Below are positions 3,122 to 20,371 of a stretch of DNA of 64,000 nucleotides, piece by piece. A program made the translations under genes and the position numbers. The notes below the pieces were generated by a model. That model searched no databases. It was not told the origin of the DNA and worked only from the letters and a program-made list of their open reading frames with translations. The stretch covers positions 327,269 to 391,268 of the forward strand of contig DASPLQ010000012.1 in the NCBI GenBank assembly GCA_035627515.1, written 5' to 3'. Within the stretch, counting starts at the first letter, position 1; every line of letters starts with the position of its first letter. This DNA comes from Vitreimonas sp. Lineage in GTDB: Bacteria; Patescibacteriota; Microgenomatia; UBA1400; PJMF01.

Positions 3122-3146
3122 TAAAAAACTGTGTTGTTTACACAGT
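3122..3146 (-). terminator. intrinsic terminator downstream of comEC
   Basis: Plus strand 3128-3146 actgtg-ttgttta-cacagt forms a 6-bp stem with a 7-nt loop. It is preceded on plus by AAAAAA (3123-3128), giving a U-tract after the hairpin on the minus strand. It lies 33 nt past the comEC stop. Confidence 0.5.
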
Positions 3147-3178
3147 GCTTACTTATTTAAGTGCCTAGTTAGTAGTCA

Positions 3179-4159: not shown

Positions 4160-5228
4160 AAAGTGAGAGCCGGGCTCTTCTCCTCTGGCGGCCTCGATAG
4201 TAACAATATCCCAGCCCGCAAATGATGTACCAGGCTAAAAAATGCCAAATGCCAAACCCATTTATTATCCATAAACTGCCCTCATATCTCCCAAGCCAAG
4301 TAGCTCCTCCTATAAAGAGTTGTAATCCTAGCCACAAAGGAATAAAAACGAGCCAATGACAGATAATCTCCACGATTGGAACGAAGTTAATAAAACTGAG
4401 GAGCATAAAGACTAAGCCGCCAATTGTTAACAGCGGAGTTAGCCATAGTAATACAGTATTGCTCACTAAACTTAAGGTGCTCAGTTCGCCAAAGTGATAA
4501 AGCACAATCGGGAGGGTCAACATTTGTGCGGCACAGGTTGTGACAAAGGCTTCGCTAAAAATAGAGCGAAGATATGAGCTCGTAGATAATAATGAAGGTG
4601 ACAATGTCTGGCCGGTACTAAGAGCCGTATACCACTGAGCACTGACTTCATTTTTGTTATTCGCCAGCGAAGTAAAAAAAATGATCCCCACACATGCTGC
4701 TGCTGAAAGTTGGTAGGAAATACTACTTATCGTTGTCCAATCACTAAGTGCTCCTACTAGTGTCACTAGTCCCAATGCCCGTAGGGGTGAGTATTGGCGT
4801 AATAAGAGTTGTCTATTAAGTAAGCTAATGATTGCCATAGTGCTAGCCCGAATAATTGAAGGTGTGAGATCAGCCATAAGGGCATAAACAGTCACTACCC
4901 CACACAAGATAACAAGCTCATAAAACCGTTCAAAACGGGTAGTAACCATACTACCGAGACTAACCATTAGGCCCACATTGAAGCCTGAAGCCGACGTCAC
5001 ATGCTGCATCCCAATAACTTTTAATGAGTGATTCAACTCTGTTTCATCTTCTCCGCTTCCGCCAAAAACCATACCATGTAAGAGCTGAGATTCAGTCGTA
5101 GAAAAGTAGCCTATAAGCGACTTGAGAAAGCGGTTTTTGATGGCGATAAGGGGATATTCGCAAATGGTTTTCCAATCATTTACCAAAAGTGTTATTAAAT
5201 ATGTATGGTTTAATAATTGATTTATCAT
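4149..5228 (-). CDS. comEC: ComEC/Rec2 N-terminal half: polytopic membrane competence domain
   Basis: Multi-TM protein with a Competence-domain-like core (GMQHVTSASGFNVGLMVSLG). Ends 11 nt inside the next ORF, which carries the MBL domain. Confidence 0.75.
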   Translation of the reverse strand: MINQLLNHTYLITLLVNDWKTICEYPLIAIKNRFLKSLIGYFSTTESQLLHGMVFGGSGEDETELNHSLKVIGMQHVTSASGFNVGLMVSLGSMVTTRFERFYELVILCGVVTVYALMADLTPSIIRASTMAIISLLNRQLLLRQYSPLRALGLVTLVGALSDWTTISSISYQLSAAACVGIIFFTSLANNKNEVSAQWYTALSTGQTLSPSLLSTSSYLRSIFSEAFVTTCAAQMLTLPIVLYHFGELSTLSLVSNTVLLWLTPLLTIGGLVFMLLSFINFVPIVEIICHWLVFIPLWLGLQLFIGGATWLGRYEGSLWIINGFGIWHFLAWYIICGLGYCYYRGRQRRRARLSLFDV

Positions 5229-5657
5229 ACTTTTTTTACTTACATTTCTCTTATCAAATTCTTGCTCTTTTCCGCCAAAAAAGGCCCAAAAGCCTTAATA
5301 TTAGAATAATTTTGATATCTTTGTGCGTAGCGGCTACTTAGAAAAAGTAGGTATGATGCCTGGAAAGCACTTTGCTTATTACCTTTTTTGTCGTTTCTTA
5401 CATTTCAAAGACATTCGGTGAACGCATCATTAACGCAAATAAAGTGATCTATATTAATAAATCATTTTCTATCAAAATACCTATTAATATCATGGTTTTT
5501 GCTTTGAAAATTTTAATTTCTAAAGATGCGAAAAGCATAGACTTATATTTATTTTGTTATTTTTTAACCTCTTCGAGACTATAATAAGCTACTACATTCG
5601 ATCTTGTACAAATAAACTCAAAAATATTAAGCCTATATTAATTACCTATAGTTTTAT

Positions 5658-6308
5658 CTATAGAGTTATTATATTTTTTATGTCATTAAAAATCCCCTCC
5701 GTTACAACCTCATTACTTAGCAATTGATTTACATCTGTGTATGGACGGTGGTCAATAATCGTCTGAGCCCGTTTTTCACCAATGCCTGGCAAAGCGTCGA
5801 GTTCATCAAGAGTAGCCGAGTTGATAGAAACAGCGCCTCCAACTGTCTTGGAAAGCGATGCATGAGGTTCTGCTGAAGTAGTTAGAGATTTTTCCTCGAG
5901 GAAAGGTATGAAAAACTTTTCCCCATCGGTGAGCTTGGTGGATAAATTTAATTTCTCGGCTACGTAACCAGTATCAGCTTGGCTACTGAAGCCACCTGCC
6001 TGGTAAATAAGCTGAGCAACCCGTGCTCCTATCTCAAGTTCATAAACACCAGGGCGCTGAACGGCACCTGAGACATCAACCCAAATTTTGCCGATCTCAC
6101 CGCGCAAAAAAACACCTTCAGATTCTGTGGGCTCAAAAGCGGCTACTACGGGAAGAGGTTGATAATTAATGCCATAAATTAAATGTAACCACCCCCCAAT
6201 AATCAGCACTAAGCCTACTATATCGAGAATGATTAAATTCCAAATCTTTTTGTCAAATTTCTTGACAATTATTAGAACTCTATTGAGTGTAGGTAGTTCA
6301 TTAAACAT
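5658..6308 (-). CDS. comEA: ComEA-like DNA-binding competence protein (N-terminal TM anchor, C-terminal helix-hairpin-helix)
   Basis: C-terminus INSATLDELDALPGIGEKRAQTIIDHRPYTDVNQL is a typical ComEA HhH motif. An N-terminal hydrophobic anchor is present. Confidence 0.75.
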   Translation of the reverse strand: MFNELPTLNRVLIIVKKFDKKIWNLIILDIVGLVLIIGGWLHLIYGINYQPLPVVAAFEPTESEGVFLRGEIGKIWVDVSGAVQRPGVYELEIGARVAQLIYQAGGFSSQADTGYVAEKLNLSTKLTDGEKFFIPFLEEKSLTTSAEPHASLSKTVGGAVSINSATLDELDALPGIGEKRAQTIIDHRPYTDVNQLLSNEVVTEGIFNDIKNIITL

Positions 6309-6376
6309 GAAGCTACTCTACCCCACCAACCTTGCATAAACTGTAGCGCGGGAGAAAGTTAACAATGTGTGAGGAA

Positions 6377-7162
6377 TTACTTATCTAGAGCACTAATCTG
6401 CTGATCACCTTCATCTCTATTTACTTCGTCTTGTGAATAAACCCGGTAAGTATTCCAGCCTTGATCACGCGGAAAGAGAGCGCTTATATCAAGTTCACGT
6501 AGAGCATTTCGAATATCAGGAATATACGTTTGAGCAATTGTCTGACGACTAACGTTAAATTCTTGACAAAGTTCCATAGGCGAAGATGAGAGAGGGTGCT
6601 TATCAATCAAAAATTTAAGCACCTTGCCAGAGGCTGGAAGCAGGTTTAATTTTTCTCCACCATAAATAAAAGCTGATAAAGATTTCCCCCGTGACAGGTA
6701 CTCAACATACACAAGACCGTAGAAAAATGGTGATAAATTTTCAACCTTTTTAACTTGACTGTTTTCTGGCAAAAAATTGGCTACATCAAGTATTTCATCA
6801 TCACTCTCGCCTACTTCATCTTCTATATCAGAAAAAAGAGTCATCTCGCTCCCTATGACTAATAAATAGAGATTGAGAGCTAAACAGACTTCGTATTCTG
6901 CCTTAAAATCAGCTTCACTCATGCGATCGATATTTCTTTTGAGAGTAATTAGACGTTGCTTAAGGTTGCTTGCGATACTTAATAACTCATCGCTACTAAC
7001 ATCTGAAAAATCACTTACATCATAAACATCACCCACATCACCTAAAAAAGCCTTTGCTACTCGAGAACTTAGTTTCAGGAGCGGCTCATTACTGATCATG
7101 CCCTCTAAAAAAGTGGTGTAATGGCGTTCAAGATATTCGTGGTGTTCAGGTAAAAAAGACAT
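6377..7162 (-). CDS. hypothetical acidic protein; C-terminal region resembles an OmpR/PhoB-type winged helix (Trans_reg_C-like)
   Basis: Tightly packed between leuS and comEA on the same strand. C-terminus ...LLPASGKVLKFLIDKHP...SRQTIAQTYIPDIRNALREL...GWNTYRVY follows the winged-helix pattern ending G-[WY]-x-Y-R-[LV]. No receiver domain. Confidence 0.5.
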   Translation of the reverse strand: MSFLPEHHEYLERHYTTFLEGMISNEPLLKLSSRVAKAFLGDVGDVYDVSDFSDVSSDELLSIASNLKQRLITLKRNIDRMSEADFKAEYEVCLALNLYLLVIGSEMTLFSDIEDEVGESDDEILDVANFLPENSQVKKVENLSPFFYGLVYVEYLSRGKSLSAFIYGGEKLNLLPASGKVLKFLIDKHPLSSSPMELCQEFNVSRQTIAQTYIPDIRNALRELDISALFPRDQGWNTYRVYSQDEVNRDEGDQQISALDK

Positions 7163-7169
7163 ACACTGG

Positions 7170-7889
7170 TTATAGAGAATCCTGATTTGGCGTTATTTTT
7201 TGCAATCGATAGCCACCGTTATGCCCCGGGCGTGGTTCATGAAAAACGAGCTCCAAATTGATCTGGGATAAGATGCGATTAAAGCGGGTAGCAAACTCCT
7301 CAAGACTTTCTTCATGGCCTAATAGACTGGGATAGTTTTCAAATTGGCTGAGAAAAAACATGCTGGTGGGAAATAACAGGTAATCAGTTAACTCAAATAG
7401 CAGCGCATGCTCTTGGATGGTCAAACTTAATCGATCTTCTCCTAGATAAAAAGCTTGTTCGCGCTGATGGTAACGCAAACTTGGATGAATCTGCTCAAAA
7501 CTAATCCAGGCGTTATAAGCCCTGACTTGCTGCTCCCAATTTTTTGTTTCTCTTGACTTATCAGCTAAGACATATGAGCGGCTCCGACCAGGTTTGATAA
7601 CTAACGACACGTTCATGAGTTCAAAGAGCTTGTTTAAACTTGTTACCACATCTCTCAATATTGTCTTCCCCTCTATCAAGGCTGTCAGGTCTTTATCGGG
7701 CAAGGTCTTTTTGCTCATGAGACTCAACAAAACTCGCTCTTGATCAGGGGTTAAACGGAAAGTTTTGGCTTCATAAGAATAGGTGCGGCTGGCTAGTTCA
7801 TAGTTCCAACCGGCAAACTGTTCTAAAATAGCTTGCGGATACTCTGGGTATGATTTTTTTTCGGTTTCCATAGTCCTATATTCTACCAT
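7170..7889 (-). CDS. hypothetical protein; central region resembles an OmpR/PhoB-type winged helix
   Basis: FRLTPDQERVLLSLMSKKTLPDKDLTALIEGKT...RDVVTSLNKLFELMNVSLVIKPGRSRSYVL resembles the Trans_reg_C pattern. The C-terminus has a second RPGHNGGYRL motif. Sits 8 nt from the downstream paralog-like ORF. Confidence 0.5.
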   Translation of the reverse strand: MVEYRTMETEKKSYPEYPQAILEQFAGWNYELASRTYSYEAKTFRLTPDQERVLLSLMSKKTLPDKDLTALIEGKTILRDVVTSLNKLFELMNVSLVIKPGRSRSYVLADKSRETKNWEQQVRAYNAWISFEQIHPSLRYHQREQAFYLGEDRLSLTIQEHALLFELTDYLLFPTSMFFLSQFENYPSLLGHEESLEEFATRFNRILSQINLELVFHEPRPGHNGGYRLQKITPNQDSL

Positions 7890-7995
7890 ACTTACTCATT
7901 AAATGTGTATGTATCATGCGTCGTGGAAGTGTTCTGACCACTAAAAAGGAGGGCATTCGGCCCTCCTTTAAGCGTTGTCTCGATAAATGGGACTG

Positions 7996-10497
7996 CTACC
8001 CGACGACTAGGTTCACAATCTTCCCTGGCACATAAATTTCTTTCTTGAGCGTACCTTGAGACAGCCACTGTTGGACTTTGGCTTCAGCCTTGGCTTTGGC
8101 TAAGATAGCGGCTTGGTCTTGGGCTTCGGTCGGGGTAACGCTCAACTGTTCACGAACTTTGCCATTCACCTGCACCGGAATAATCACTTGCTCTTCTTGA
8201 GCTAGAGCTTCGTCCCAAGTTGGCCAACTGCCGGTGTGAACTGAAACTTGTGGTTGATCGCTCGTACTATTCACAGTTTGCCACAACTCCTCTGCCATAA
8301 ATGGCGCAAACGGAGCCAACATCTGGATCACCATTTTAATTTCATCTGATGATAACGCGCCTTGACCAGCACTTTTATTGGCTTCTTCCCAGACATTCAT
8401 AAACTCCATCATCGAGGCAATAGCGGTGTTGAACTTGAGAGCTGGGATGTCTTGTGTCACTTTACGAATCGTTTGGTGTAACTTGCGGCGAGCGCGAGTC
8501 GCGGTTTCACCCTCGGCTGAGGTAGAGAGTGGTTGAGCGATAGCCTCACTCACTTGTTTATGCACCCGGCTTAAAAAGCGATAGACACCCGCCACGGCCG
8601 TGACACTCCAGGGCTTGTCGGCTTCTAACGGTCCCATGAACATTTCATAGACCCGCAGCGTATCCGCCCCAAATTTCTCGATGACTTCGTCGGGGTTAAT
8701 GACATTACCCTTACTCTTACTCATCTTCTTGCCGTCTGGACCCATGATCATGCCTTGATGGCGCATCTTCATAAATGGCTCATTGAAACTCAGATACCCT
8801 TCATCTCGCAAGAACTTAGTGAAAAAGCGCGAGTATAACAAGTGCAACACAATGTGCTCCGGCCCAATCATATACAAATCAACTGGCAACCATTTCTTAG
8901 CCTGGTCCTTATCCATGAAGGTTTTTTCATTACGCGCACTGACATAGCGCAAGAAGTACCAGCTTGAATCCACAAACGTGTCCATAGTGTCAAACTCTGG
9001 GCGCCAGCCTTTACCGTACAGTTTTTCGGTTCGCTCGATGAATTCTTTCGAGTGGGTCAGCGGCGACTCGCCGGTGGGCTTAAACTCCACGTCGGTAGGG
9101 AGTGTCCATGGCAAGTGTTCTTCCTTGACTGGGTGCGGCTGACCTTCAGGATCATACACAATGGGGATTGGTGCGCCCCAGTAGCGTTGGCGGGAAATCA
9201 ACCAATCGCGAAGTTTGTAGGTGGTTTGCCACTCACCCCATCCCTGTTTAATCATCCAATCGGCCATGTTTTTCTTACCTTTACCCCAAGCGTCCTGCCC
9301 ATCAAACTGCCCTGAGTTGACCAATACACCTTCGCCTTCGAAAGATATCTCGCTAGCAGCGACTTTTTTGTCAATTTCTTTGTCAGAATATGAAACTACT
9401 TGACGCACAGGTAAGTCAAACTTTTTGGCAAACGCAAAATCTCGTTCATCGTGAGCAGGCACGCCCATCACAATCGCGGTCCCGACACCCATCAAAACGT
9501 AATCAGCAATAAATAAGGGCACAGCTTCACCATTGACGGGGTTAACAGCATGTAAACCAGTATCGACACCAGTTTTATCTTTTTGACCAATTTTGCGTTC
9601 TTCTTCAGTTTTATGTTTGGCGGCTTCTAAGTAGTCAGACACAGCTTGCTGACGATCACTTGGCACTAAACCCGTCAATCCTAGTGATTCAAATTTTTCT
9701 GGAGCAATAACTACAAAGGTCGTTCCAAATACCGTTTCCCAAAACTTAGTCCAGATTGTTAAATCGATGGCTTTTTCTTGGAGCTGGAAGGTAATATTCA
9801 GGCCTTGAGCTTTTCCAATCCAATGAAGTTGATGTTGCTTGGTCGCCTCTGGCCAATCGACTTCATTCAAGCCACTAATTAATTCATCCTTATATTGAGT
9901 GATTTTAAAGTACCATTGCTCGAGGTCTTTCTGGACGACAGCGGTACCACAGCGTTCACAAGTACCATCCACGACTTGTTCGTTAGCCAACACCGTCTGG
10001 CAGGATGGGCACCAATTGACCATCCCCTTCCCGCGGTAGGCTAAACCTTTGTTATACATTTGGATAAAGAGCCATTGAGTCCATTGGTAATAATCAGGAT
10101 GGCTGGTAGCTAATTCATTAGCCCAGTCATAAGAAACACCAATGCGTTTGATTTGGCGACGAAAGGTATTAATGGCGCTCTTAGTAGTTTCAGCGGGATG
10201 GATACCTGTTTTAATGGCGTAATTTTCAGCCGGCAGTCCAAAGGCGTCCCACCCGACTGGGAAAAAGACTTGTTTACCATTCATCCGGTAATAACGAGCC
10301 ATGATATCCAGCGCCGTTTTTGATTCGACGTGACCAACATGTAAACCAGATCCAGAAGGATACGCAAAAGCAAATAACAAGTACATTTTGTCCTCAGGAC
10401 TGCCTGCCTGGTTTTCACTCTGCTGGAAAAGACCTTTTTCCTCCCACCATGCTTGCCAGCGTTCTTCGATTGCGGTTGGATTGTAGGTTGTACTCAT
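7996..10497 (-). CDS. leuS: leucine--tRNA ligase
   Basis: 833 aa with HVGHVESKTALD (HIGH), KMSKSKGN (KMSKS), a CP1 editing region and a Zn-like CxxC segment (CPSCQ...CERCG). AAGGAG Shine-Dalgarno 6 nt upstream of the ATG. Confidence 0.92.
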   Translation of the reverse strand: MSTTYNPTAIEERWQAWWEEKGLFQQSENQAGSPEDKMYLLFAFAYPSGSGLHVGHVESKTALDIMARYYRMNGKQVFFPVGWDAFGLPAENYAIKTGIHPAETTKSAINTFRRQIKRIGVSYDWANELATSHPDYYQWTQWLFIQMYNKGLAYRGKGMVNWCPSCQTVLANEQVVDGTCERCGTAVVQKDLEQWYFKITQYKDELISGLNEVDWPEATKQHQLHWIGKAQGLNITFQLQEKAIDLTIWTKFWETVFGTTFVVIAPEKFESLGLTGLVPSDRQQAVSDYLEAAKHKTEEERKIGQKDKTGVDTGLHAVNPVNGEAVPLFIADYVLMGVGTAIVMGVPAHDERDFAFAKKFDLPVRQVVSYSDKEIDKKVAASEISFEGEGVLVNSGQFDGQDAWGKGKKNMADWMIKQGWGEWQTTYKLRDWLISRQRYWGAPIPIVYDPEGQPHPVKEEHLPWTLPTDVEFKPTGESPLTHSKEFIERTEKLYGKGWRPEFDTMDTFVDSSWYFLRYVSARNEKTFMDKDQAKKWLPVDLYMIGPEHIVLHLLYSRFFTKFLRDEGYLSFNEPFMKMRHQGMIMGPDGKKMSKSKGNVINPDEVIEKFGADTLRVYEMFMGPLEADKPWSVTAVAGVYRFLSRVHKQVSEAIAQPLSTSAEGETATRARRKLHQTIRKVTQDIPALKFNTAIASMMEFMNVWEEANKSAGQGALSSDEIKMVIQMLAPFAPFMAEELWQTVNSTSDQPQVSVHTGSWPTWDEALAQEEQVIIPVQVNGKVREQLSVTPTEAQDQAAILAKAKAEAKVQQWLSQGTLKKEIYVPGKIVNLVVG

Positions 10498-10682: not shown

Positions 10683-10937
10683 ATGTCAGAAAGATACACA
10701 GTGGATAAGCAACATGCCTACTTAACCTGCGGTGCCGTCGGGCCGGCAGTAGCCACCGCCATCTTCACGGCTTTGATGGTGGCACCTCCAGAGGTGAGAG
10801 CAGCCTTATGGCACTCGAAAGAGCTAGTAACCAAAGAGATTGTAACCACACTCTGCTGTTGTGGAGTGCCCACTGTAGCGGGAGTCACTGGACTAGTGAG
10901 TTACTTGAAACATCGAGCGCACTGGACAGTCAACTAA
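10683..10937 (+). CDS. small hypothetical protein (84 aa, hydrophobic, CCC motif), first gene of plus-strand surface operon
   Basis: ORF track only. Position at the head of a tightly packed operon supports it being real. Confidence 0.35.
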   Translation: MSERYTVDKQHAYLTCGAVGPAVATAIFTALMVAPPEVRAALWHSKELVTKEIVTTLCCCGVPTVAGVTGLVSYLKHRAHWTVN

Positions 10938-10982
10938 ACCTCGATCATTACTCCCCGCCTTAAATCCTGCTATACTGATGTA

Positions 10983-11681
10983 ATGTCTGCCCTAGTTCAC
11001 AGCTTGTCTGTTTTGGTGGCTATCGCCTTAGCCTTTGTGTGGATACAAATCCCTTTCCTGAGTATTTATTCCTTACAAGTTTTTGCGGCTACGATGGCGC
11101 TCTACTTCATCATTAAGCGCCTTAGCCAAGCTAAACTGTGGCACGTGGCTCCTACCTTGTCATCGGTGGAAATGCCGATTCTTACTTTTGGTTTCCAAAT
11201 GCTAATTGGAGCTACTGGCAACTTTCACTCCTTATTTTTTCCCCTGACATTTGTACATTTATTTTTCTTGGTCTTAGCCACTGAAACCACCACTGCGATT
11301 GTTGCTAGTTTAGGCATCATGTTTTTTCACTACCTAATGACTCCAGAACTGTCTGTAGCCATGGTCAGTCAAGCCGCCACTATTCCCATCGTGATGGTCT
11401 TTTTTCTGTTTGCTAAACACCAATATCAAGAAGTTCAGCACGAAACTGCCCTCCTCAATACTCAGGAACAAGCCTTGGTGTCGTGCACCTACCAAGAACA
11501 CGAGTGGCGACAGTTTATGGCAGAGTTCTTGTTGCCAAAGTTGGTGGTTTTAGAAGAACTTGCCCACTCTGCTCAAGAAAATCAGCATACACTCCAGGGA
11601 CAACTCGCCTTACTCCAATCTGAAATCAAAAAAATGTTAGACAAAGTCAAGCACAATGAACTCGACAACCCTCAAGCTTAA
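10983..11681 (+). CDS. polytopic membrane protein (~5 TM) with C-terminal cytoplasmic coiled coil
   Basis: Hydrophobic segments followed by a Q/E-rich helix. The HEWRQFMAEF segment faintly resembles a histidine-kinase H-box, but no ATPase domain follows. Confidence 0.55.
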   Translation: MSALVHSLSVLVAIALAFVWIQIPFLSIYSLQVFAATMALYFIIKRLSQAKLWHVAPTLSSVEMPILTFGFQMLIGATGNFHSLFFPLTFVHLFFLVLATETTTAIVASLGIMFFHYLMTPELSVAMVSQAATIPIVMVFFLFAKHQYQEVQHETALLNTQEQALVSCTYQEHEWRQFMAEFLLPKLVVLEELAHSAQENQHTLQGQLALLQSEIKKMLDKVKHNELDNPQA

Positions 11682-12456
11682 CCAGCCTTTTCTTAAACGC
11701 CACTCGCTAGGCCAGTTTTTTTCTCGATCGGGAGTGGTAATGATGTTGGCTGCAGCTTGGTGGACCGCTCTCCAGCTCCCAGCCCGGCTCAGGGCTGAGC
11801 GCCTCGAATCAGACTCTTACGTCATCCAGTTTGGTAACTTCAATGTCACCAGTGGCGAAAAAGACAGTGCCTCCTACAACGTCACCGACACGGTGGGACA
11901 AACTGGTGCCGGACCGTATGGCCAATATGGCAGCAGCGGCTACTTCGTGGGCTCAGGCTTTCAATATATCTATCAAATTGATGACTTCAACTTCAAAATT
12001 TCCCAAGTGGCCTTGGATTTTGGTGAGCTCATCATTGGCACGCACAAGACAGCTTCGCATACGCTGACGATTACCACCAAAGGCGCTGGGGGCTACACCG
12101 TTTATGCCTATGAACTCCATCCTCTCCGCAGTCCTGCCAACGATACTATTGCTGACACTACCTGTGATGCCGGAACGTGTTCACAAACTACAGCTGGGGT
12201 CTGGAGTAATCAGAGTATTCCGGGCTTAGGGTATAACATGAGTGGGCATGATATTCCCGCTGCTTTTGTGAACAGTACTTACTTCAAGCAATTTGCTGAT
12301 CTTAGTCTGGGCGAAACGATGCAAGCCGTGATGAGTTCCACCAATATCGCTAATCAGCGCCAATCCACTGTTACTTACAAACTCGGTATCAATAGCACCC
12401 AAGCCTCGGGCAAGTATCAAACAGGAGTCGTCTATGTGGCGGTACCAGGGTATTAA
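11656..12456 (+). CDS. secreted surface protein with WxL-like C-terminal domain (CscB/CscC-like)
   Basis: The true start is probably the internal MMLAAAWWTALQLPARLRA signal-like segment near 11737. C-terminal ~150 aa (ALDFGELIIGTHKTASHTLTITTKGAGGYTV...C..GTC...WSN...GLGYNMSG...KQFAD...TYKL...SGKYQTGVVYVAV) is paralogous to the C-terminus of ORF 13425. It starts with the xFGE(L/I) motif typical of WxL domains. Confidence 0.55.
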   Translation: MNSTTLKLNQPFLKRHSLGQFFSRSGVVMMLAAAWWTALQLPARLRAERLESDSYVIQFGNFNVTSGEKDSASYNVTDTVGQTGAGPYGQYGSSGYFVGSGFQYIYQIDDFNFKISQVALDFGELIIGTHKTASHTLTITTKGAGGYTVYAYELHPLRSPANDTIADTTCDAGTCSQTTAGVWSNQSIPGLGYNMSGHDIPAAFVNSTYFKQFADLSLGETMQAVMSSTNIANQRQSTVTYKLGINSTQASGKYQTGVVYVAVPGY

Positions 12457-13450
12457 GCTCTCTCGTCCACCCTTGTTTAAGCGCTGGCTTCAGATTGCTG
12501 TGATGGCCGTGGGCGTGGCACTCGGCTTCACTCTGACCACCACCTCCATTACAGCCCAAACTGCCCCCCTAGAACTATCGATCAACCCCCCGGTGGCTTA
12601 TCTCCATGTCAAGCCTGGTTCCAATCAAACTCACACCCTCACCCTACAGCATCATGGCACTGTACCTCTCGAGGCGATAATAAAAGTCGTCGATTTTGTC
12701 CCGGACGGCGAAACTGGCCAACCAATTTTAACTGATGTCAGCACCTTTCCTTACTTAACATTGCTCAATCCTAACGAACGCCTCGGCGAGCCATTTCCTT
12801 TAGTGCCAGGCAAGGCAAAAAAATTAAGCTTTAATATTGATGTACCAAACTCAGCGACGCAAAAAGAGTACCCTTTGACCATCTTGATTAATACGCAACC
12901 AAACAGTCAGTATTCAGTGGTCCAAACTGGTTCTCAGCTGGGTGGGACCATCGCTAGCAATGTGATTATTCTGGTCTCTGAGTCAGATCGGCTTCCTCGT
13001 CGCTTGACGATTGACTCACTTACCGGACCGCGCTTTCTAGATAGCTTTAGTACCCTCAAGTTTGATCTAAAATTAAAGAATGTGAGTTTACAAGCGGCTC
13101 CCGCTTCTGGGAGCGCCCGACTCAAAAATTGGCAAGGTAAAACGCTCAAGGAATGGCAGCTTTATCCTGATATGGTGCTGGGTTCCGCCACCCGCTTCGC
13201 TCGTGGCCTCGATCCCACTGCCGCCGAACCCACCCCAGTGGAGTTTACCTATCGTGGTTTCTTAATCGGGCCTTATAGCATCGAGGCTCAGCTCAATAAT
13301 CAAGGTGGCCAGCAAGAGCTGCTGACCGTCAAAATGATTGCTTTACCATGGTCACTCGGGTTACTACTTATCATCGGTGTAATCCTACTTGGGTTAGGCA
13401 AATATTTCAGTCAAAAAGATCATCTTGATAAAACTCCAAAAAGTGTTTAA
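12434..13450 (+). CDS. DUF916-like cell-surface protein with signal peptide and C-terminal TM anchor (CscA-like)
   Basis: Signal peptide, then LSINPPVAYLHVKPGSNQTHTLTLQHHGTVPLEAIIKV. A C-terminal TM (LGLLLIIGVILLGLG) is followed by a basic tail. This matches the DUF916 N-terminal pattern (V.P.LPENQ...L.VKPGQ.Q.L.V.V.N). Confidence 0.6.
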   Translation: MWRYQGIKLSRPPLFKRWLQIAVMAVGVALGFTLTTTSITAQTAPLELSINPPVAYLHVKPGSNQTHTLTLQHHGTVPLEAIIKVVDFVPDGETGQPILTDVSTFPYLTLLNPNERLGEPFPLVPGKAKKLSFNIDVPNSATQKEYPLTILINTQPNSQYSVVQTGSQLGGTIASNVIILVSESDRLPRRLTIDSLTGPRFLDSFSTLKFDLKLKNVSLQAAPASGSARLKNWQGKTLKEWQLYPDMVLGSATRFARGLDPTAAEPTPVEFTYRGFLIGPYSIEAQLNNQGGQQELLTVKMIALPWSLGLLLIIGVILLGLGKYFSQKDHLDKTPKSV

Positions 13451-14966
13451 CGTTATAGCTACGTCGTTTTTTTTCGACTATGCTCGCTGTGAACTGCCTA
13501 TGAAAAAAGCCCATCTTCAAAAAGCTCTTGTATTAGTAGGCGTCCTGACCTCATTTTTTGTGGTTGCTCACGTCAACGAACAACTCCGCTCTGCTAGTTT
13601 GACCTCCGTCTCGGTCACCATGTCTAATCCTCGCCCTTCCTTCCGTGGCGCTTTAACCAGTGGCAACACCGTCGGTTCCTCGACTGTCATCATCAACACC
13701 ACCGCTGGTAGTTATCCATCTACATCTTCAGCACAATTGGTCGAAGGTGATGTGGTCCGGATTGGCAGTGCTGGCACGATGGGCACTCATACCGTGGCCA
13801 GTACCAGTTCATTATCTACCTTTACCGTTACCAGCGCCTTGGGCTCCGGTAATGCCGATTCTGGTGATGATGTCATCTCGACTCAATCTGCGACTCACAC
13901 TGTGCGTTTTACTACCGCCAATGCTATTGCCAATGGCCGCTTCCGAGTTTTGGTCCCAGCTTTAACAGACAACGGCGCTTCATCTGATGGTATCCCTGAT
14001 GGCGGCTTCTTTGATTTCAGCACCACTCCCGCGACTATGACCTGTCCTTCAGACGTGGGCTCCACGTATGACTTTGTCTCTGGTGTCGCTTCCGCTTCTT
14101 CTGTGACTGTTAATAACGTCGATTACCACGTGTTCGAGTGTGCTTATTCAGGCACCGGTGGTGTAGGTACCATTTTCGATGGAGGTGGTGGTAACCAAGG
14201 CGTGTTTACTCTGGCTGGTTTAATTAACCCAGCTCCTAAAACCGCTCACACTACGGGCACAGCCGATGCACACAACATCATTGTTCAACACTTGGATAGT
14301 TCCTTCAACGCCATCGATCAAACTACTGTCCAGGTAGGTGTGATTGAAGCTGTTAAATTAACCGCCTCAGTTCCTCCTCAAATTACCTTCCAAATTATTG
14401 GTACTGCGACCGGCACCTCAGCATGTGGTCAAACCACTGACGTGGCCACTACCCCAGCTAGTGTGCCATTTGGAGAAATCTCGATCTCTGCCTTTACCGA
14501 AGCCGCTCATAGCTTGACCGTCTCCACCAACGCGACTGGTGGTTATAGCGTCACAGCCATTGCTAACGACCAAATGGGCCGCAATGGCGGTGTCTGTACT
14601 GGTGATAATACCGGTGTGAACTGTATTCGCGATACGATTGGTAATGGCGGCACGATCACACATACTACCAGTGGTGAGTGGACAAACGTCAGCGCTAAAG
14701 GTTTAGGGTACTCACTTCATGACGTGAATAGTTCGATTACTAACCTACCAGCTGAGGCGTTTTCTTATAATGAGAGTAGTCGCACCTTCTCCACTAAACA
14801 ATTTGCCGATGCTGAAGACGGCCAAGCCGCCCAAGCTATTTTTGGCAGTGGCACCGTGGCTGATAACGAAAACTTATATGTCTGTTACCGGATTGTGGCC
14901 GCCAGTACTACCGCCGCTGGTAACTATGAAAATTACGTCACCTACAATGCGACATCAACCTTTTAA
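13425..14966 (+). CDS. large secreted Thr/Ser/Gly-rich surface protein with WxL-like C-terminal domain
   Basis: Signal-like N-terminus. C-terminal domain (VPFGEISISAFTEAAHSLTVSTNATGGYSV...C..GVNC...WTN...GLGYSLHD...KQFAD...YVCYRI...AGNYENYVTYNATSTF) is paralogous to ORF 11656. Confidence 0.6.
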   Translation: MIKLQKVFNVIATSFFFDYARCELPMKKAHLQKALVLVGVLTSFFVVAHVNEQLRSASLTSVSVTMSNPRPSFRGALTSGNTVGSSTVIINTTAGSYPSTSSAQLVEGDVVRIGSAGTMGTHTVASTSSLSTFTVTSALGSGNADSGDDVISTQSATHTVRFTTANAIANGRFRVLVPALTDNGASSDGIPDGGFFDFSTTPATMTCPSDVGSTYDFVSGVASASSVTVNNVDYHVFECAYSGTGGVGTIFDGGGGNQGVFTLAGLINPAPKTAHTTGTADAHNIIVQHLDSSFNAIDQTTVQVGVIEAVKLTASVPPQITFQIIGTATGTSACGQTTDVATTPASVPFGEISISAFTEAAHSLTVSTNATGGYSVTAIANDQMGRNGGVCTGDNTGVNCIRDTIGNGGTITHTTSGEWTNVSAKGLGYSLHDVNSSITNLPAEAFSYNESSRTFSTKQFADAEDGQAAQAIFGSGTVADNENLYVCYRIVAASTTAAGNYENYVTYNATSTF

Positions 14967-14987
14967 TAACTAACGCTGACACCATTT

Positions 14988-16103
14988 ATGATAACTGCCC
15001 ACCCCACCCCCAAATCTCTTGTTGCTGTGAGCTGTGGTTTACTCATCGCTAGTGTGGTGGCCGGAACATTTGTCAATTCATTTGGTCTTAAAACGAGTTG
15101 GGCTCAGGTGGCTGAACCCACCCCAATTGCTGTCCCTACCACTACTGAAGTACCTGGTATGGCTGATCCTACTGACGTCCATAGCCTGACCGCAATTCCT
15201 CCCCGGTTGGGTGAAAACCGCGAACTCAAAGCCAAGCCTGGTGAGACGATTCAAGCCGTAGTCCGTGTCCGTAACGGCAGTAACAAACCCATTTTTATTA
15301 AAACCAGTGCCCAAGATTTTATCTTGAGTGAAGATGGCCAAACTCCTATTCCTGTCCAAGATAATGTTTCTAACCGCTGGAGTTTAGCTTCATGGATGAC
15401 ATTGTCGACCACTTCACAGCGCTTAGGCCCTAACCAATCAGGGAATGTTAACGTCGTCATCACCGTACCCGCCGATGCCCTGCCTGGTGGTCACTACGCG
15501 ATGGTGATGCACGAGCCCACCACTGCTCCTGCACCAGCTGGAAGCGAAGAAGCGACTGCTAAATCTGCAGCTTTAGTTTCACAACGCGTCGGTACGCTGC
15601 TCTATTTCGAAGTTGAAGGCCCGATCAATGAAGCTGCTTTTGTACGCAACTTCTCGATGCCCAAATTTACTGAGTATGGTCCAGTGCCTTTCAAGTTTAC
15701 CGTCGAAAATATGTCTGATATCCACATCCGACCTCAGGTGGGGGTAGAAATTTATAATATTTTTAATCGTAAAGTCGATACTATCGTGATCGAACCTAAG
15801 AATGTCTTCCCGTTTGTGGCCCGTGAGTTTGAGGGCAAATGGGATCGCGTCTGGGGTATTGGTCCCTATAGAGCTAAGTTAACCATGAGCTACGGCCAAG
15901 CTGGTGCAGTAGTGGTAGCTAAAACCAGTTTTTGGTTAATTCCTATTAAATTAGTCTTGGCTATAACTACTATCTTCATGTCACTGTTAGTAGTCATTAT
16001 TGCCGTCCGCCGTCACCTCTTGCATCGTCAAGATGCTGCTCAAGCCCGCATTGAGATGCTGGAAAAGAAACTTCAAGATCTTGAACACGAGCACGAGCTC
16101 TAG
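14988..16103 (+). CDS. DUF916-like cell-surface protein with C-terminal TM anchor and coiled-coil tail (second CscA-like)
   Basis: AIPPRLGENRELKAKPGETIQAVVRVRNGSNKPIFIKTS closely matches the DUF916 N-terminal pattern. C-terminal TM helix, then a charged helical tail. Confidence 0.6.
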   Translation: MITAHPTPKSLVAVSCGLLIASVVAGTFVNSFGLKTSWAQVAEPTPIAVPTTTEVPGMADPTDVHSLTAIPPRLGENRELKAKPGETIQAVVRVRNGSNKPIFIKTSAQDFILSEDGQTPIPVQDNVSNRWSLASWMTLSTTSQRLGPNQSGNVNVVITVPADALPGGHYAMVMHEPTTAPAPAGSEEATAKSAALVSQRVGTLLYFEVEGPINEAAFVRNFSMPKFTEYGPVPFKFTVENMSDIHIRPQVGVEIYNIFNRKVDTIVIEPKNVFPFVAREFEGKWDRVWGIGPYRAKLTMSYGQAGAVVVAKTSFWLIPIKLVLAITTIFMSLLVVIIAVRRHLLHRQDAAQARIEMLEKKLQDLEHEHEL

Positions 16104-16113
16104 GAGCTAGGCT

Positions 16114-18213
16114 ATGTCAGCTCGTCACCCTCGGACAGCTGCTCACCGAGTTGGCACTCTCACCACTCACTTACTTTTTGTGTTCTTTTCAGTTTTTTTT
16201 GGCTTAGGATCAGGCTTTTTAGGATTTTCTGTCCAAGCTCAAGATGGAGGGATTGGTCCAGGTGAAGATTTTTTAACTAACCCCAAAATAAGAGAAGTAA
16301 ATGTCACGGCGACTGTACCTGATAACTTGCCACCGACAGCTCCGGTCTTGATCTCCCCCAACAACAATTCCTATGTCACCATCAATAAGCCAAGTTTTGT
16401 TTGGCAAGCCTCGAGTGATGACAATGGCATTAGCCACTATAAAATGTCGCTTGATGGCGTCGATTACATCGATAACATTCCTACTACCGCGACTGATAAT
16501 GCGACGTATACGCTGACCTATAACGCCGTTTCTGATGAGTATACGCTGACGCCTAAAACTGGCCTGAGTGAAGGTACTCACACCTGGAAAATTCGCGGCA
16601 CCGATACGCTCGGCAATGGCAGTGATTCTGCTACCTGGACCTTCACCATTGATACCCAGGCTCCAGCTTTTGTGATTACCCAGCTGGGAACCGCCACCAC
16701 CAGTATTTCTAGCCAAGATATCAGTACTATTCCTAGTACACCTCTGGAACTGAGCGCAAATGAACCACTACTGGTGGGCACAGGTGAGGCCAATAGTAGC
16801 GTCCAGCTGACGGTGAGTATTCCAGATGATCCAACTCAAAATTTTAGTTTCAGCATCACAGGCAGTAGTACTTGGGAACAGCAGTTGGGGATCTTGCCTC
16901 GCGACGTCACCATCTTGCTTGATTTTGTGATCACTGACCTAGCTGGCAACGTCTCTATCTTGAGTAATGTGCCGTTTACTATTCCCAGCCCAGTGATCAT
17001 TTTCCCACCTGCCAGTGCTTCTCCTTCTCCATCCCCTACCCCCAGCCCCGCTGCCTCCACCGAGCCAGGAGCTAGCCCTTCACCCACACCAGAGGTTTTT
17101 CCTAATCCCAGTCCTTCACCTTCACCGTTGATTGTGATTCCATACATTCCGCCGCGGGAAGTGGCACACTCTTTTACTCAAGAATTAGCGGAAAACTTAA
17201 GCTTTTTGACCGATGCTGTGCCAGCTCCTATCCGAGAAACCGTAGCTGAAGTGGCTAATACCATTGCACCTACCTCTGGGCTGATTGTGGCCACCTCGAT
17301 TCCGCTAATCTCCACGGTGGCAGTGGCCTCGCAATTTGGCTGGAGTGTCTCTCCAGATCTAATCATTAAAATTCTCCAAGCGTTGGGTCTCTTACCAGCC
17401 GGAAAACCTCAAGGTTTGGTCTATGACAGTGAAACGCGCCAACCAATAGCCTTTGTAGTCTTAACTATCACTAGTCAAGATCCTGAGCACTTAATTAAAG
17501 AGACCGTGGTCACAGATGCCGATGGCGTCTATCGCGGCTTTAAGTTACCACCGGGTAAATATATCCTCGAAGCCAATCAACAAGAATATCGCTTCCCTAC
17601 CCGGCTAGCTCGCCCCCCTTACTTGAGTATGAACGACTTTTACAAAGGTGAGGTCTTTACCGTCACTCAAAATAACCAAGATCAGTTATTCTTAATTCCA
17701 ATGGATCGCCTGACAGAGTTGCCTAATGGGACGTGGAAATCAAAGGGACGAATTTTCTTAGCCCAAATTAATCGTCGTCTGCAGTTTTTAGCTCTGCCTC
17801 TGTTTCTATTCTCGGGTTTCTTGGCCTTGCTCTACCCTTCGATCTGGAATTGGCTGGTGTTTGGCTTTTATTGTTTCTTACTGGGGCGGACAGTCTTGGA
17901 TTGGTTTAAAACTCCCCAGATTACGGGCACTGCTATCGATGAGTTTGGAACCGGGGTGAAAGACGCCGTGATCCGGATTGGGTGGCCAGAAACTAACGAG
18001 CTGGTCAAGATCTTGCTGACAGATAAGAATGGCAACTTCAAAGCCTTCCTGGCGCCTGGGGAGTATCAAATGACAATCATTAAGCTGGGTTACGTCTGGT
18101 ATGAAAAAGACGCTCCGATGAGTTTGTACCAAGTCAAAGCATCTGACAAACCAGTCAACATAGTAGCAGCTCTCCGCTCCACTGAGAGCTTATATAAAGA
18201 GTTGTTTGGGTAG
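16114..18213 (+). CDS. large surface protein: signal peptide, Ig/FN3-like domain, Pro/Ser-rich linker, two TM segments, two CarboxypepD_reg-like beta-sandwich domains
   Basis: Ig/FN3-like domain (PTAPVLISPNNNSYVTINKPSFVWQASSDDNGISHYKMSLDG...) resembles the FN3-like repeats of giant protein 2. PSPSPTPSP linker. GLVYDSETRQPIAFVVLTITS...TDADGVYRGFKLPPGKYILEA and ...TDKNGNFKAFLAPGEYQMTI resemble carboxypeptidase regulatory-like domains. Confidence 0.65.
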   Translation: MSARHPRTAAHRVGTLTTHLLFVFFSVFFGLGSGFLGFSVQAQDGGIGPGEDFLTNPKIREVNVTATVPDNLPPTAPVLISPNNNSYVTINKPSFVWQASSDDNGISHYKMSLDGVDYIDNIPTTATDNATYTLTYNAVSDEYTLTPKTGLSEGTHTWKIRGTDTLGNGSDSATWTFTIDTQAPAFVITQLGTATTSISSQDISTIPSTPLELSANEPLLVGTGEANSSVQLTVSIPDDPTQNFSFSITGSSTWEQQLGILPRDVTILLDFVITDLAGNVSILSNVPFTIPSPVIIFPPASASPSPSPTPSPAASTEPGASPSPTPEVFPNPSPSPSPLIVIPYIPPREVAHSFTQELAENLSFLTDAVPAPIRETVAEVANTIAPTSGLIVATSIPLISTVAVASQFGWSVSPDLIIKILQALGLLPAGKPQGLVYDSETRQPIAFVVLTITSQDPEHLIKETVVTDADGVYRGFKLPPGKYILEANQQEYRFPTRLARPPYLSMNDFYKGEVFTVTQNNQDQLFLIPMDRLTELPNGTWKSKGRIFLAQINRRLQFLALPLFLFSGFLALLYPSIWNWLVFGFYCFLLGRTVLDWFKTPQITGTAIDEFGTGVKDAVIRIGWPETNELVKILLTDKNGNFKAFLAPGEYQMTIIKLGYVWYEKDAPMSLYQVKASDKPVNIVAALRSTESLYKELFG

Positions 18214-19212
18214 GGCTGGTTAAAGGCTTCTTAAGGCTGAGCGGCTGAGAACCGGTACTTATCAGTCACGACTCGGTCTTTCATCTTAAAGTATCCTTCA
18301 ATTGCATGACACTTTTTTGGCTTGTATGATTTTTGCCAATATTCATACAAGTAAAAATTTGGCCACATTTAGGAACATTCCTCCGGGATGCTTTATCATG
18401 GTTAGTGATGTTACTGCAAAAGCTAGCCTGGACACACGTCAAAATGTACGTTTTGTACATAGCCCAGGGGAACTTCTGAAGTAAGTGCTCATGATGTAAG
18501 GCCTTTAAGACGGATTCTTAAGGGGCGCTAAAAAAGAGCCTTATCTTTTTTTGTTTGACAGTGGTTGTTCAAAAAGTGAACTTTGTGAAGGTTGTGCTAT
18601 TTTTGTTAATAATCGCACAAGTCTTATGAATGCGTGTTAATTGTGGTCCAATTCCCCGCCGCTTTTTGTAATGAGCATTACAACTATGAAGCTTTAACCT
18701 ATTTAACGAATGGGTTTAATACCAACCATTCATTTTTTTAAAAGTTACTAATCCTTATTCGCACATTGAACAGCCGGCTAAAAGCCTTTTAAATGGCATG
18801 GATATTTAGAGCCTATATTAATTAAGAAACCCTCTCTCTTCACTCCCTAAAATATAGAGTTTTTCAGTTGGTGATGATTCTCTCCACTAACTGCCTATGG
18901 GTCACTAAAATCACAAAAATCCTCACTTTTGCATCTTTTTCGCACCAATTTAAAGCGAATTTTAACTTAAAATTTAAACATGTTTATTAACGCATGATTA
19001 ATGCTTTATTGTTGCAAGATCTGGTATTTAATACCCGCAAATAAATAATTTAAGTTATTAAGCTATCTTTAGGTATATTTTTGGTTGTCAGTTTTTTATA
19101 AAATCCAATACCCGAAGCAAACAAAACAAATTAACTCTCTACACACATTGTTTAACTAGCTGGGGATAAAAAGTGTTCAGCTTGAGGACGTAAGAAAAAC
19201 GTAAGCGATTTT

Positions 19213-19968
19213 CTATTTTTGTCCTATAAGTATGAGGAGTTCGCGCCATTTACTAAGTATCGCGATTGGTGACTCTTCTTGAGAAACACTTGAGGCAGCA
19301 AGACCCACGTCTTCGTTAAATAAGAAGTAAAAACGATCGTAGATCAGGGCGATTTGCTCTTTTTGCTTGCCGGTCAATTCTTTTTTGTTCTTACAATTCT
19401 CTATCAGAGTTCTTACATCTCTGCTAACTCCAGAGTATCCATTTTTAAGGGTTTGTAAACCAATTAAGCGGTCTAAAAGTAACTGTTGGTCCCCTACTTC
19501 CCAACTCGCAATTTTAAAAATGACAATGGCATTCCCGTATAAGAGCTTACTTTCCTGGAGCACTCTTGAGGGGAACTCTCCCGGATAAAGGTATGCGCCT
19601 CGAGAAAGAGAGATCGCAGTATGCTCAATTAACAACCGTCGCAAATAACGAAAGTTAGGATCGGATTTAGGAGGCTGCAAAAACAACATACATGACCACT
19701 CCCCCTGCCAAGTTAGCCAGTGAGGCTGCAAAGCCGGAAATAAGCTTTCCACTATGTGTTTACCGTGTAGTCCCAGCTTTACACACGGTCCAAGATCGGT
19801 TTTCTCGATGATGATCAAGCCTTCCTTGGTTAATAAATGCAACACTGATCTGAAACCAGGCGCAGTTATTTCGGGAACCAGGAGTGACCAGGTAGTGATC
19901 GGCACAAGATTTGGGTTTTCTTTAGGTGAATACAGAGCGAGCAGGAGCTTTTTTGAAGTACTTTTCAT
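19213..19968 (-). CDS. PaaX-family-like transcriptional regulator (winged helix plus PaaX_C-like domain)
   Basis: W..QGEWSCMLFLQPPKSDPNFRYLRRLLIEHTAISLSRGAYLYP matches the PaaX_C pattern (WDG.WHLV.F..PE...R...R..L...GFG.L..G.W..P). The N-terminus is winged-helix-like (VLHLLTKEGLI). The gene sits in a low-GC island. Confidence 0.45.
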   Translation of the reverse strand: MKSTSKKLLLALYSPKENPNLVPITTWSLLVPEITAPGFRSVLHLLTKEGLIIIEKTDLGPCVKLGLHGKHIVESLFPALQPHWLTWQGEWSCMLFLQPPKSDPNFRYLRRLLIEHTAISLSRGAYLYPGEFPSRVLQESKLLYGNAIVIFKIASWEVGDQQLLLDRLIGLQTLKNGYSGVSRDVRTLIENCKNKKELTGKQKEQIALIYDRFYFLFNEDVGLAASSVSQEESPIAILSKWRELLILIGQK

Positions 19969-20371
19969 CTTTAACGCAAAATAAGTCTAAATATATCTAT
20001 ATTAAAAAGTATCATTTAATTCTTTAATCAATATTCGAGCTACCGAAACTGCTTTTTAAGACTCATTTGTGAATTTAAAAGTAATAATTTTAAATATTAG
20101 CCTGGTAAACAACATTAGAATTATTAAATTTTAGTTTTCTGTTCATAAAGTATACATTTTTTAAACAAATCACAAAAGGGAGACATCGGGTCAGAGTGTG
20201 AGCAAATGTCTGCCCACCTTTTCTAGATTTATTTGGATGATCTCTTTTGTATGAATTTGGTAAGCATGAAAAATCGTGAAAATTAACGCAATTTACGGCC
20301 AGTTTTCGGTTTTTAACAGGCTGTATATACTCTTACGCGCGCACGAAGTTTCCAGGCTAAACTTGAGGGAT

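Follow-up and report, generated by a model that had tools for sequence, protein, structure and literature searches.

What kind of surface structure is encoded by a compact cluster of genes for exported proteins in an uncultivated bacterium, and how is it related to the WxL complexes of Gram-positive bacteria? The cluster lies at positions 10683–18213 of a 64,000-nucleotide (nt) stretch of DNA, the whole of which was studied and is hereafter called the window, and it consists of seven co-directional open reading frames (ORFs) on the forward strand, g1 to g7. An earlier note on this DNA had described it as a Csc/WxL-like cell-surface complex outside the Lactobacillales. We conclude that g2–g7 are probably (at a rough estimate, 70%) the operon for a Pam-type pilus, i.e. 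a surface filament, of a Microgenomatia-type Patescibacterium, assembled without an usher and with membrane-anchored chaperones. The reading draws on the anatomy and synteny of the cluster, the sub-threshold homology of the C-terminal domain (CTD) of the subunits to Pam pilins, the pilin-like and chaperone-like folds, the homology of the helper proteins g4 and g6 to the WxLIP proteins of Firmicutes, and the transmembrane (TM) anchors of these helpers.

The cluster type is already described, in a 2026 preprint on the Pam system (bioRxiv 10.64898/2026.03.03.709456) and in the NCBIfam Pam models, and the locus is a new, divergent example of the Microgenomatia type. The earlier note had regarded such a complex as novel outside low-GC Gram-positives, a claim that is superseded by that preprint, by the NCBIfam models and by the 'DUF916' names that NCBI gives to proteins of Patescibacteria.

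A conserved gene cluster in a Microgenomatia-type genome

Coordinates (Table 1) are those of the longest ORFs, in positions of the window. The ORFs encode 84 (g1), 232 (g2), 266 (g3), 338 (g4), 513 (g5), 371 (g6) and 699 (g7) amino acids (aa), and the distances between them, from g1 to g7, are +45, −26, −23, −26, +21 and +10 nt, so the description of seven co-directional, overlapping or closely spaced genes is accurate. Database versions of g3 and g5 begin 28 and 25 codons further in (238 and 488 aa), and some of the overlaps may therefore be artefacts of start choice. Database searches returned 646, 865 and 557 clusters of homologs for g3, g5 and g6, respectively. Among the best 120 listed clusters for each of these proteins, identities are 58–76% for g3, 54–76% for g5 and 48–76% for the three taken together. 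Given these numbers and the kept gene order, the ORFs are clearly more than chance and the genes are real.

Five syntenic contigs were fetched through orthologs of g6 (labels within L001–L006). The order is the same in 5/5: a gene for leucyl-tRNA synthetase (LeuRS) on the reverse strand, g2-g3-g4-g5-g6-g7 on the forward strand, a gene for a protein of ~250 aa on the reverse strand and a giant ORF on the forward strand. The gene g2 opens the cluster in all five and g7 closes it in all relatives. On the left side of LeuRS, the window genes for arginyl-tRNA synthetase, a metallo-beta-lactamase-fold protein, ComEC and ComEA also agree with the syntenic loci. The window LeuRS is 58–65% identical to its counterparts in these contigs, and g3 is as conserved as this enzyme (58–76% within its best 120 listed clusters), which is unusual for a surface protein. 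No equivalent of g1, which has two hydrophobic segments, is called in any of the five loci, and tblastn against them gave only matches with E>2. The conserved unit is therefore g2–g7 (10983–18213), and g1, previously counted as part of the unit, was rejected as an operon member. Rfam detected no RNA family in the window, and promoter and terminator scans were at chance level, leaving the operon limits undefined by these scans.

Judging from the taxon names given by the sources of homologs and from synteny, the host is a Patescibacterium of Microgenomatia type. Apart from a few odd labels of metagenome-assembled genomes (MAGs), named homologs belong to Ca. Pacebacteria, Ca. Woesebacteria, the Microgenomates group and the Patescibacteria group, and the syntenic loci include one (L006) that encodes a Pacebacteria-labelled DUF916 ortholog. 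Together with the identity of LeuRS to that of the syntenic contigs, these observations bear out the non-Lactobacillales context. The giant surface proteins, type IV pilin-like genes and VirD4-like coupling protein encoded in the window are consistent with a genome of the candidate phyla radiation (CPR). The exact g3 protein is NCBI HYD34816.1, from a MAG with locus tags of the VD999_ series, on a 1.41-Mb contig labelled 'Vitreimonas sp.'; contig look-ups by exact sequence with the window copies of g3 and g6 had no match. This name, that of an alphaproteobacterial genus, is likely a mislabel, as it clashes with the taxon names of the orthologs, the synteny and the gene content. A close ortholog occurs on a 1.08-Mb contig that is similarly labelled 'Pseudomonadales bacterium'.

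Two secreted subunits resemble Pam pilins

Cryo-electron microscopy (cryo-EM) of filaments of Ca. Mycosynbacter amalyticus has identified the pilins PamA and PamB, each with a beta-sandwich at the N-terminus, a truncated immunoglobulin (Ig) domain at the C-terminus and, between them, a linker strand that it donates to the next subunit (bioRxiv 10.64898/2026.03.03.709456). The same operon encodes PamC and PamD, putative chaperones with the FimC/PapD fold and a C-terminal TM helix; the complete set of pilins is PamA, PamB, PamE and PamT, and PamR, with an RbmA fold, is the anchor (bioRxiv 10.64898/2026.03.03.709456). Pam homologs are reported only in CPR, mainly in Saccharimonadia and Microgenomatia, those of Microgenomatia having been found only through a language-model search (~21% identity), and the Pam genes have ATP synthase genes and a conserved tail-fibre-like gene as neighbours (bioRxiv 10.64898/2026.03.03.709456). 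ATP synthase also adjoins the cluster in one of the syntenic contigs studied here (L001).

In the window, g3 and g5 had been noticed as paralogous secreted proteins with a common C-terminal domain of ~150 aa. This relationship is firm: BLASTP aligns them with 33% identity over 166 aa (E 1e-19), and hhalign aligns the two family profiles with 98.9% probability (E 1e-17). The large subunit, g5, has seven Cys. The g3 protein matches the NCBIfam model NF058581 (CPR_Pam_pilin_C) with E 3.2e-6 over profile positions 4–148 of 148, at 27.3 bits (cut-off 55), and the match of g5 is weak (E 0.014). Across the g3 family, NF058581 matches 44/44 members tested (E 3e-6 to 1e-11) and CPR_pilus_PamT matches 17/44. 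Although below the cut-off, the matches recur throughout the family and show that its CTD is homologous to the Pam pilin model, the family itself lying beyond the curated boundary. The family is also large, since a combined g3 and g5 profile finds 2024 clusters (50% identity) at E<=1e-3 in 1.8 billion representatives.

Structure prediction agrees with a pilin-like domain. In the AlphaFold2 (AF2) model of the g3 monomer, the CTD (residues ~110–266) has a predicted local distance difference test score (pLDDT) >90, and the segment 45–107 is disordered (pLDDT<50). Fold searches for the common domain return dozens of donor-strand pilins of chaperone-usher systems as neighbours; a sequence search of the PDB with the g3 family profile gave nothing meaningful. 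Of the 56 columns that are invariant in the family, 32 fall within the 72 residues 45–116 of g3, which corresponds to 0.44 per residue, compared with 0.16 in the CTD, and makes this the most conserved part of the protein. By analogy with the donated linker of PamA and PamB, which is likewise conserved yet disordered in the monomer model (bioRxiv 10.64898/2026.03.03.709456), this extension is a candidate for a donated or inter-subunit strand.

Two helper proteins are homologs of WxLIPs

WxL clusters encode a small and a large WxL protein with a common C-terminal domain and a WxLIP, which is made up of DUF916, DUF3324 and a TM segment (PMC10599100, PMC1534035). The WxLIP has two Ig-like domains and a TM helix, and an AF2-predicted strand of it inserts into a gap of the WxL sandwich (PMC10599100), an arrangement that, as modelled, would be chaperone-type donor-strand complementation in all but name.

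The helpers g4 and g6 had been singled out as DUF916-like proteins with C-terminal TM anchors, and both parts of this description stand. A hydrophobic segment near the N-terminus and a TM segment near the C-terminus occur in both window proteins and in 5/5 orthologs of each, and the two families are paralogous (hhalign 98.1%, E 1.2e-13, 265 columns). In hhalign with a profile of 55 Firmicute WxLIPs, the g6 family aligns at 96.4% (E 1.2e-9) and the g4 family at 95% (E 3.9e-8, 159 columns), and WxLIPs make up 39 of the 50 top Firmicute ORFs for the g6-family hidden Markov model (HMM). The 'P..L....LKaKPGe.Q...V.N' pattern on which the DUF916 likeness was originally based does align with the DUF916 motif region of real WxLIPs. 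At the level of Pfam the picture is mixed. PF06030 (DUF916, WxLIP_PGBD) matches g6 with E 1.5e-4, at 22.2 bits and below its cut-off of 27.3, and 31/43 g6 orthologs at E<=0.01 (best 4e-8), and g4 has no match. Several g6 orthologs carry a precomputed PF06030 match or the NCBI name 'DUF916 domain-containing protein [Patescibacteria group bacterium]'. The expected DUF3324 domain is not detectable by sequence: PF11797 (DUF3324, WxLIP_HBD) has no match in g4, g6 or the 43 orthologs, and hhalign of the second domain gives 8%.

In the AF2 model of g6 (pLDDT 83), a long C-terminal helix begins at residue 320, after two beta-sandwich domains. A comparison with Enterococcus DUF916 proteins had been proposed, and the top three Foldseek matches of this model in the PDB are 9i1y_A, 9i25_C and 9i1y_B (E 7e-12 to 2e-11, probability 1.00). 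The entry 9i1y is a WxLIP of Enterococcus faecium and 9i25 is the WxLIP of locus A bound to a long WxL protein, and ~270 columns covering both domains are aligned. A sequence search of the PDB with the g6 family profile found nothing meaningful. The next Foldseek matches are RbmA and the chaperones CfaA, DraB, CsuC, SafB, FimC and Caf1M; for the pilus chaperones, E is 1e-9 to 1e-7 and target-normalised TM-scores reach 0.56. It is thus essentially shown that g4 and g6 are homologs of the Firmicute WxLIP/DUF916 proteins, strict Pfam membership of the window proteins excepted, as g6 is below the cut-off and g4 has no match.

The subunits are not recognisable as WxL proteins

The order g3-g4-g5-g6 places a small and a large paralog beside genes homologous to those of WxLIPs, as in WxL loci, and the small subunit/helper/large subunit/helper layout found here agrees with the alternating order that had been likened to csc and WxL loci. 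The g3 and g5 proteins were compared with a reference set of 68 real WxL loci, which was collected by scanning genomes of Enterococcus, Listeria, Companilactobacillus, Bacillus, Lysinibacillus and others for the WxLIP motif NQIDKxxxYFDLK and which yielded 71 small WxL proteins and 55 WxLIPs. A sample of this set that was checked against Pfam had PF13731 (WxL) at E 1e-49 to 1e-70, with PF06030 and PF11797 present.

Membership of g3 and g5 in the WxL family is not supported. The earlier note proposed a search with PF13731, which has no match at E<=1 in g3, g5 or 44 members of the g3 family. The common domain does begin with the xFGEI/L motif that had been noticed ('LDFGELI' in g3, 'VPFGEIS' in g5), but what follows is not a typical WxL domain: the W-x-L motif is absent from both proteins, and the weakly aligning positions hold GYTV and VVYV. 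Comparison of the CPR CTD with WxL profiles in hhalign gave probabilities of 0.2–8%, even with a CTD alignment of 148 sequences (number of effective sequences, Neff, 5) or with divergent subsets of WxL proteins. The trials comprised family, six-ortholog, 148-sequence and broader alignments and divergent WxL alignments with relaxed settings, as well as HMM ranking and a reciprocal HMM search, and all were non-significant; the reciprocal WxL HMM had no match in the window. No WxL chain occurs among the top 50–60 structural neighbours in the fold searches, and a real WxL protein used as query found no PDB chain by sequence.

When 571 Firmicute ORFs were ranked with the CTD HMM, the top two were divergent WxL proteins of Lactiplantibacillus songbeiensis, at 12.5 and 9.9 bits. 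Controls nearly equal the 12.5-bit score (shuffled up to 11.3 bits, reversed 10.4 bits). The pair (L043:5202–5777, 191 aa, and L043:5874–6458, 194 aa) is encoded directly upstream of a WxLIP gene and scores E ~1e-12 on the WxL HMM. Its likeness to the CTD is weak and colinear, with 'xFGxL' in the first strand and 'aGxYxxxhxY/W' in the last. These short, divergent WxL proteins could possibly be bridging sequences, and a very remote relationship between the CTD and the WxL domain is still conceivable.

A putative usher-less pilus with membrane-anchored chaperones

In the proposed mechanism, g3 and g5 would be Sec-exported subunits, the one small and the other large. The helpers g4 and g6 would stay at the cytoplasmic membrane by means of their C-terminal helix, facing outward, and would cap the groove of a subunit with a beta-strand of their own in the manner of a chaperone. 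The subunit would then be handed over, and a strand of the next subunit would fill the groove by donor-strand exchange, so that the filament would grow at the membrane with no usher. The donated strand may be the linker of g5 or the conserved N-terminal extension of g3. One of the helpers and/or g7 may terminate and anchor the fibre, which probably contacts host or prey cells. Polymerisation by donor-strand exchange and the choice of donated strand are suggested by analogy with Pam and chaperone-usher pilins, and the conserved yet disordered extension of g3 lends the polymerisation indirect support. The division of the helpers into chaperone and anchor, the parts played by g2 and g7, and contact with a host as the function are likewise proposed by analogy.

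Several observations weigh against a Pam-type pilus. Among Microgenomatia, no organism carrying this cluster has ever been seen to form filaments, and the pilin matches to NF058581 are under the curated NCBI cut-off (27 vs 55 bits). Nor do any of 125 diverse representatives of the family reach ~1e-14 on that model, which sets the subunit family apart as a distant sister of the Pam families curated on the basis of Saccharimonadia. In addition, g6 resembles RbmA, the fold of PamR, as well as chaperones, so that chaperone and anchor roles cannot be separated for g4 and g6.

Two other explanations were weighed. In one, the cluster would encode a non-filamentous complex of the WxL/Csc type, in which g3 and g5 are wall-bound on peptidoglycan and g4 and g6 are their WxLIP-like stabilising partners, with no polymer. 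The helpers are true WxLIP homologs, the parts list equals that of a WxL cluster as defined in PMC10599100, and there is a weak colinear likeness at two motif positions, the best Firmicute matches of the CTD being two divergent WxL proteins. We nevertheless regard this explanation as unlikely, as the evidence on the subunits goes the other way: PF13731 has no match at E<=1 in g3, g5 or the 44 relatives, the W-x-L motif is lacking from g3 and g5, profile comparison gives 1–8% in hhalign and HMM scores hardly above those of scrambled controls, the WxL HMM finds nothing in the window, and the structural neighbours include dozens of pilins and no WxL chain. The CTD instead matches the model of the Pam pilins, which are experimentally filamentous.

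The other explanation would make g3–g7 a scaffold for the export, anchoring and display of the 4918-aa and 3713-aa adhesin-like proteins that are encoded downstream, with no independent pilus. A giant ORF does follow the cluster in 5/5 syntenic loci with only the conserved gene of ~250 aa between, the second giant protein has seven ConA-like lectin domains, and the Pam preprint also reports a conserved 'tail fibre-like' neighbour. Adjacency is the sole basis of this explanation, and an opposite-strand gene and a gap of 1–2 kb lie between cluster and giant ORF; g3–g7 are unlike any known system for secreting or anchoring large adhesins (Pfam, NCBIfam), and the folds of subunits and helpers point to self-polymerising pilins. 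A scaffold is accordingly a very improbable reading, and a Pam-type pilus accounts best for the cluster.

Comparison with known systems

The locus shares with the Pam system a CPR host, Sec-exported subunits that carry a common truncated-Ig CTD behind differing N-terminal parts, and detectable homology of that CTD (NF058581). Both have two-domain helpers with a C-terminal TM helix, the likeness to PamC and PamD being drawn from their published description, and in both subunit and helper genes alternate, fibre-like neighbours are large, and there is no usher, sortase or ATPase. The architecture of g5 matches that of PamA as published. Differences are also evident. The window has two subunit genes whereas M. 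amalyticus has four; its subunits score below the NCBI Pam cut-off; and its small subunit has a highly conserved, glycine-rich N-terminal extension of ~70 aa. The conserved g2 (polytopic) and g7 (Big_13 and CarboxypepD_reg domains, multi-pass) are not described for M. amalyticus, and the cluster has no obvious separate RbmA-like PamR, unless g4 or g6 fills that role.

With WxL/csc systems the locus has in common a helper that is homologous in the DUF916 domain by profile, structurally alike over both domains and equipped with an N-terminal signal and a C-terminal TM helix. The pairing of a small and a large secreted partner with a common C-terminal domain is also the same, as is a helper strand that is predicted to complete the beta-sandwich of the partner. 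In contrast, the partner domain in the window is not recognisable as WxL (no Pfam match, no W-x-L), DUF3324 is not recognisable by sequence in g4 and g6, and the window helpers have PPRLG..(d)..LKAKPGE in place of the NQIDKxxxYFDLK motif. The cluster has two helpers where the commonest WxL type has a single WxLIP, it belongs to another host phylum, and WxL complexes are described as peptidoglycan-bound platforms and not as filaments.

Chaperone-usher pili share the pilin fold of the CTD, the PapD-like chaperone fold of the helpers and, as the putative principle of assembly, donor-strand complementation and exchange. The window system differs in having no outer membrane or usher, in the membrane anchoring of its chaperone-like proteins and in the additional N-terminal domain or extension of its subunits. 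The likeness is at the level of fold only, as Usher (PF00577), PapD_N/C and Fimbrial Pfam models have no match in g1–g7 at E<=1. No sortase-type signal ([LIV]PX[TAS]G) is present in g2–g7, and no ATPase is encoded in the cluster.

A possible link between WxL complexes and Pam pili

The Pam preprint (bioRxiv 10.64898/2026.03.03.709456) does not mention WxL, DUF916 or DUF3324. In the literature searched, we did not find the homology of Pam-type helpers with Firmicute WxLIPs or the equal parts list of the two systems, nor a paper that joins WxL with Patescibacteria or WxL clusters with donor-strand assembly. The helpers link the Pam pilus of CPR, seen by cryo-EM in 2026, with the WxL/WxLIP complexes of enterococci, listeriae and lactobacilli. 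Interest in these complexes comes from virulence and gut adhesion, and WxLIP–WxL structures are now solved. For the window itself, six 'hypothetical proteins' can be read as parts of a filament with which an ultrasmall, uncultivated bacterium probably contacts its host.

Should the link extend to the subunits, it would suggest an assembly mechanism for WxL proteins and a common origin of usher-less, chaperone-assisted assembly in bacteria that have no outer membrane. Tentatively, and at somewhat less than even odds, we propose that WxL/csc clusters and the Pam pili of CPR have diverged as two branches from a single ancient system of surface assembly in bacteria that lack an outer membrane, a system whose core would be a membrane-anchored chaperone with two Ig-like domains (of the WxLIP and g4/g6 type, and presumably PamC/PamD-like) that completes an incomplete beta-sandwich subunit and then passes it on. 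The Pam-type CTD and the WxL domain would in that case be diverged versions of one subunit domain. Donor-strand exchange may then underlie the assembly of WxL proteins as well, and the description of these proteins as a peptidoglycan-bound platform may be incomplete.

Membrane proteins at the ends of the cluster

The protein encoded by g2 has the conserved motifs YSLQ.F, GxTGN, HLFF and HY in an alignment of orthologs, and neither the window copy nor the five orthologs has a reproducible Pfam family match. A role as a Wzy_C/O-antigen-ligase-like enzyme, for instance in pilin glycosylation, was considered on the basis of a weak match (E 0.0017) and rejected, as the match is absent from the five orthologs.

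The large surface protein g7 does contain the two carboxypeptidase-regulatory-like domains that had been assigned to it (PF13620 CarboxypepD_reg, E 1.5e-15, two stretches), and also PF19077 Big_13 (E 5e-12). From its N-terminus it is built of a signal or anchor sequence, two Big_13 Ig-like domains, a Pro/Ser-rich linker and TM segments that alternate with the two CarboxypepD_reg domains. The hydrophobic segments, at residues ~13–40, 387–408 and 555–578, recur in orthologs. Pfam matches to SpaA and SdrD_B overlap the CarboxypepD_reg domain. By analogy, g7 is a plausible base or anchor component of the fibre.

Neighbouring genes

The gene between the cluster and the first giant ORF has no Pfam match in the window copy. 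One ortholog has a faint PaaX_M match, and the product might regulate either neighbour. The giant ORF that follows may correspond to the 'tail fibre-like' neighbour of the Pam preprint; its copy in one syntenic contig (L003) has Peptidase_S74. Type IV pilin-like or pseudopilin proteins are encoded near the cluster too, as two small proteins further downstream carry PF07963.

Table 1. Positions of the cluster genes, their parts and neighbouring genes in the 64,000-nt window
Feature	Position	Strand	Description
g1	10683..10937	+	84-aa hydrophobic ORF; doubtful, probably outside the conserved unit
g2	10983..11681	+	Polytopic membrane protein, 3–5 hydrophobic segments, C-terminal cytoplasmic coiled-coil-like tail
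g3	11656..12456	+	Small pilin-like subunit, signal/anchor helix; probable true start 11740 (238-aa database version)
g3, residues 45–116	11788..12003	+	Glycine/aromatic-rich N-terminal extension; candidate donor-strand or inter-subunit segment
g3, residues 117–266	12004..12453	+	C-terminal beta-sandwich (truncated-Ig-like) domain, in common with g5
g4	12434..13450	+	WxLIP/DUF916-like helper A; signal peptide, two putative beta-sandwich domains, C-terminal TM helix; candidate chaperone/anchor
g5	13425..14966	+	Large pilin-like subunit; probable true start 13500 (488-aa database version); signal peptide, ~280-aa N-terminal domain, linker, CTD
g5, residues ~344–513	14454–14963		Pam-pilin-type CTD
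g6	14988..16103	+	WxLIP/DUF916-like helper B
g6, residues ~63–178	15174–15521		DUF916-like domain
g6, residues ~201–317	15588–15938		Second beta-sandwich
g6, from residue ~320	15945 onward		C-terminal TM helix
g7	16114..18213	+	699-aa membrane-embedded surface protein, conserved; candidate base/anchor component
Leucyl-tRNA synthetase	7996..10497	−	Divergent left neighbour; same place in L001 and L003–L006
~250-aa gene	19213..19968	−	Between cluster and giant gene; 248–256-aa equivalents (−) in five syntenic loci
Giant ORF, 4918 aa	20462..35218	+	N-terminal Phage_int_SAM_1-like domain (E 3e-8)
Giant ORF, 3713 aa	35301..46442	+	Seven Laminin_G_3 (ConA-like lectin) stretches (E 8e-178) and an Ig_Rha78A_N domain
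Two adjacent small proteins	49608–50135, 50145–50708	−	Type IV pilin N-terminal methylation motif PF07963 (E 6e-8 and 6e-7)
VirD4/TrwB-like coupling protein of a type IV secretion system	60692–62896	+	PF10412 (E 4e-10), TraG-D_C

The G+C content is 0.39–0.40 at positions 18001–20000 and 2001–8000, compared with 0.46–0.50 in the cluster and the giant genes. The VirD4/TrwB-like coupling protein encoded near the right end of the window agrees with the monoderm-type type IV secretion system reported for Patescibacteria.

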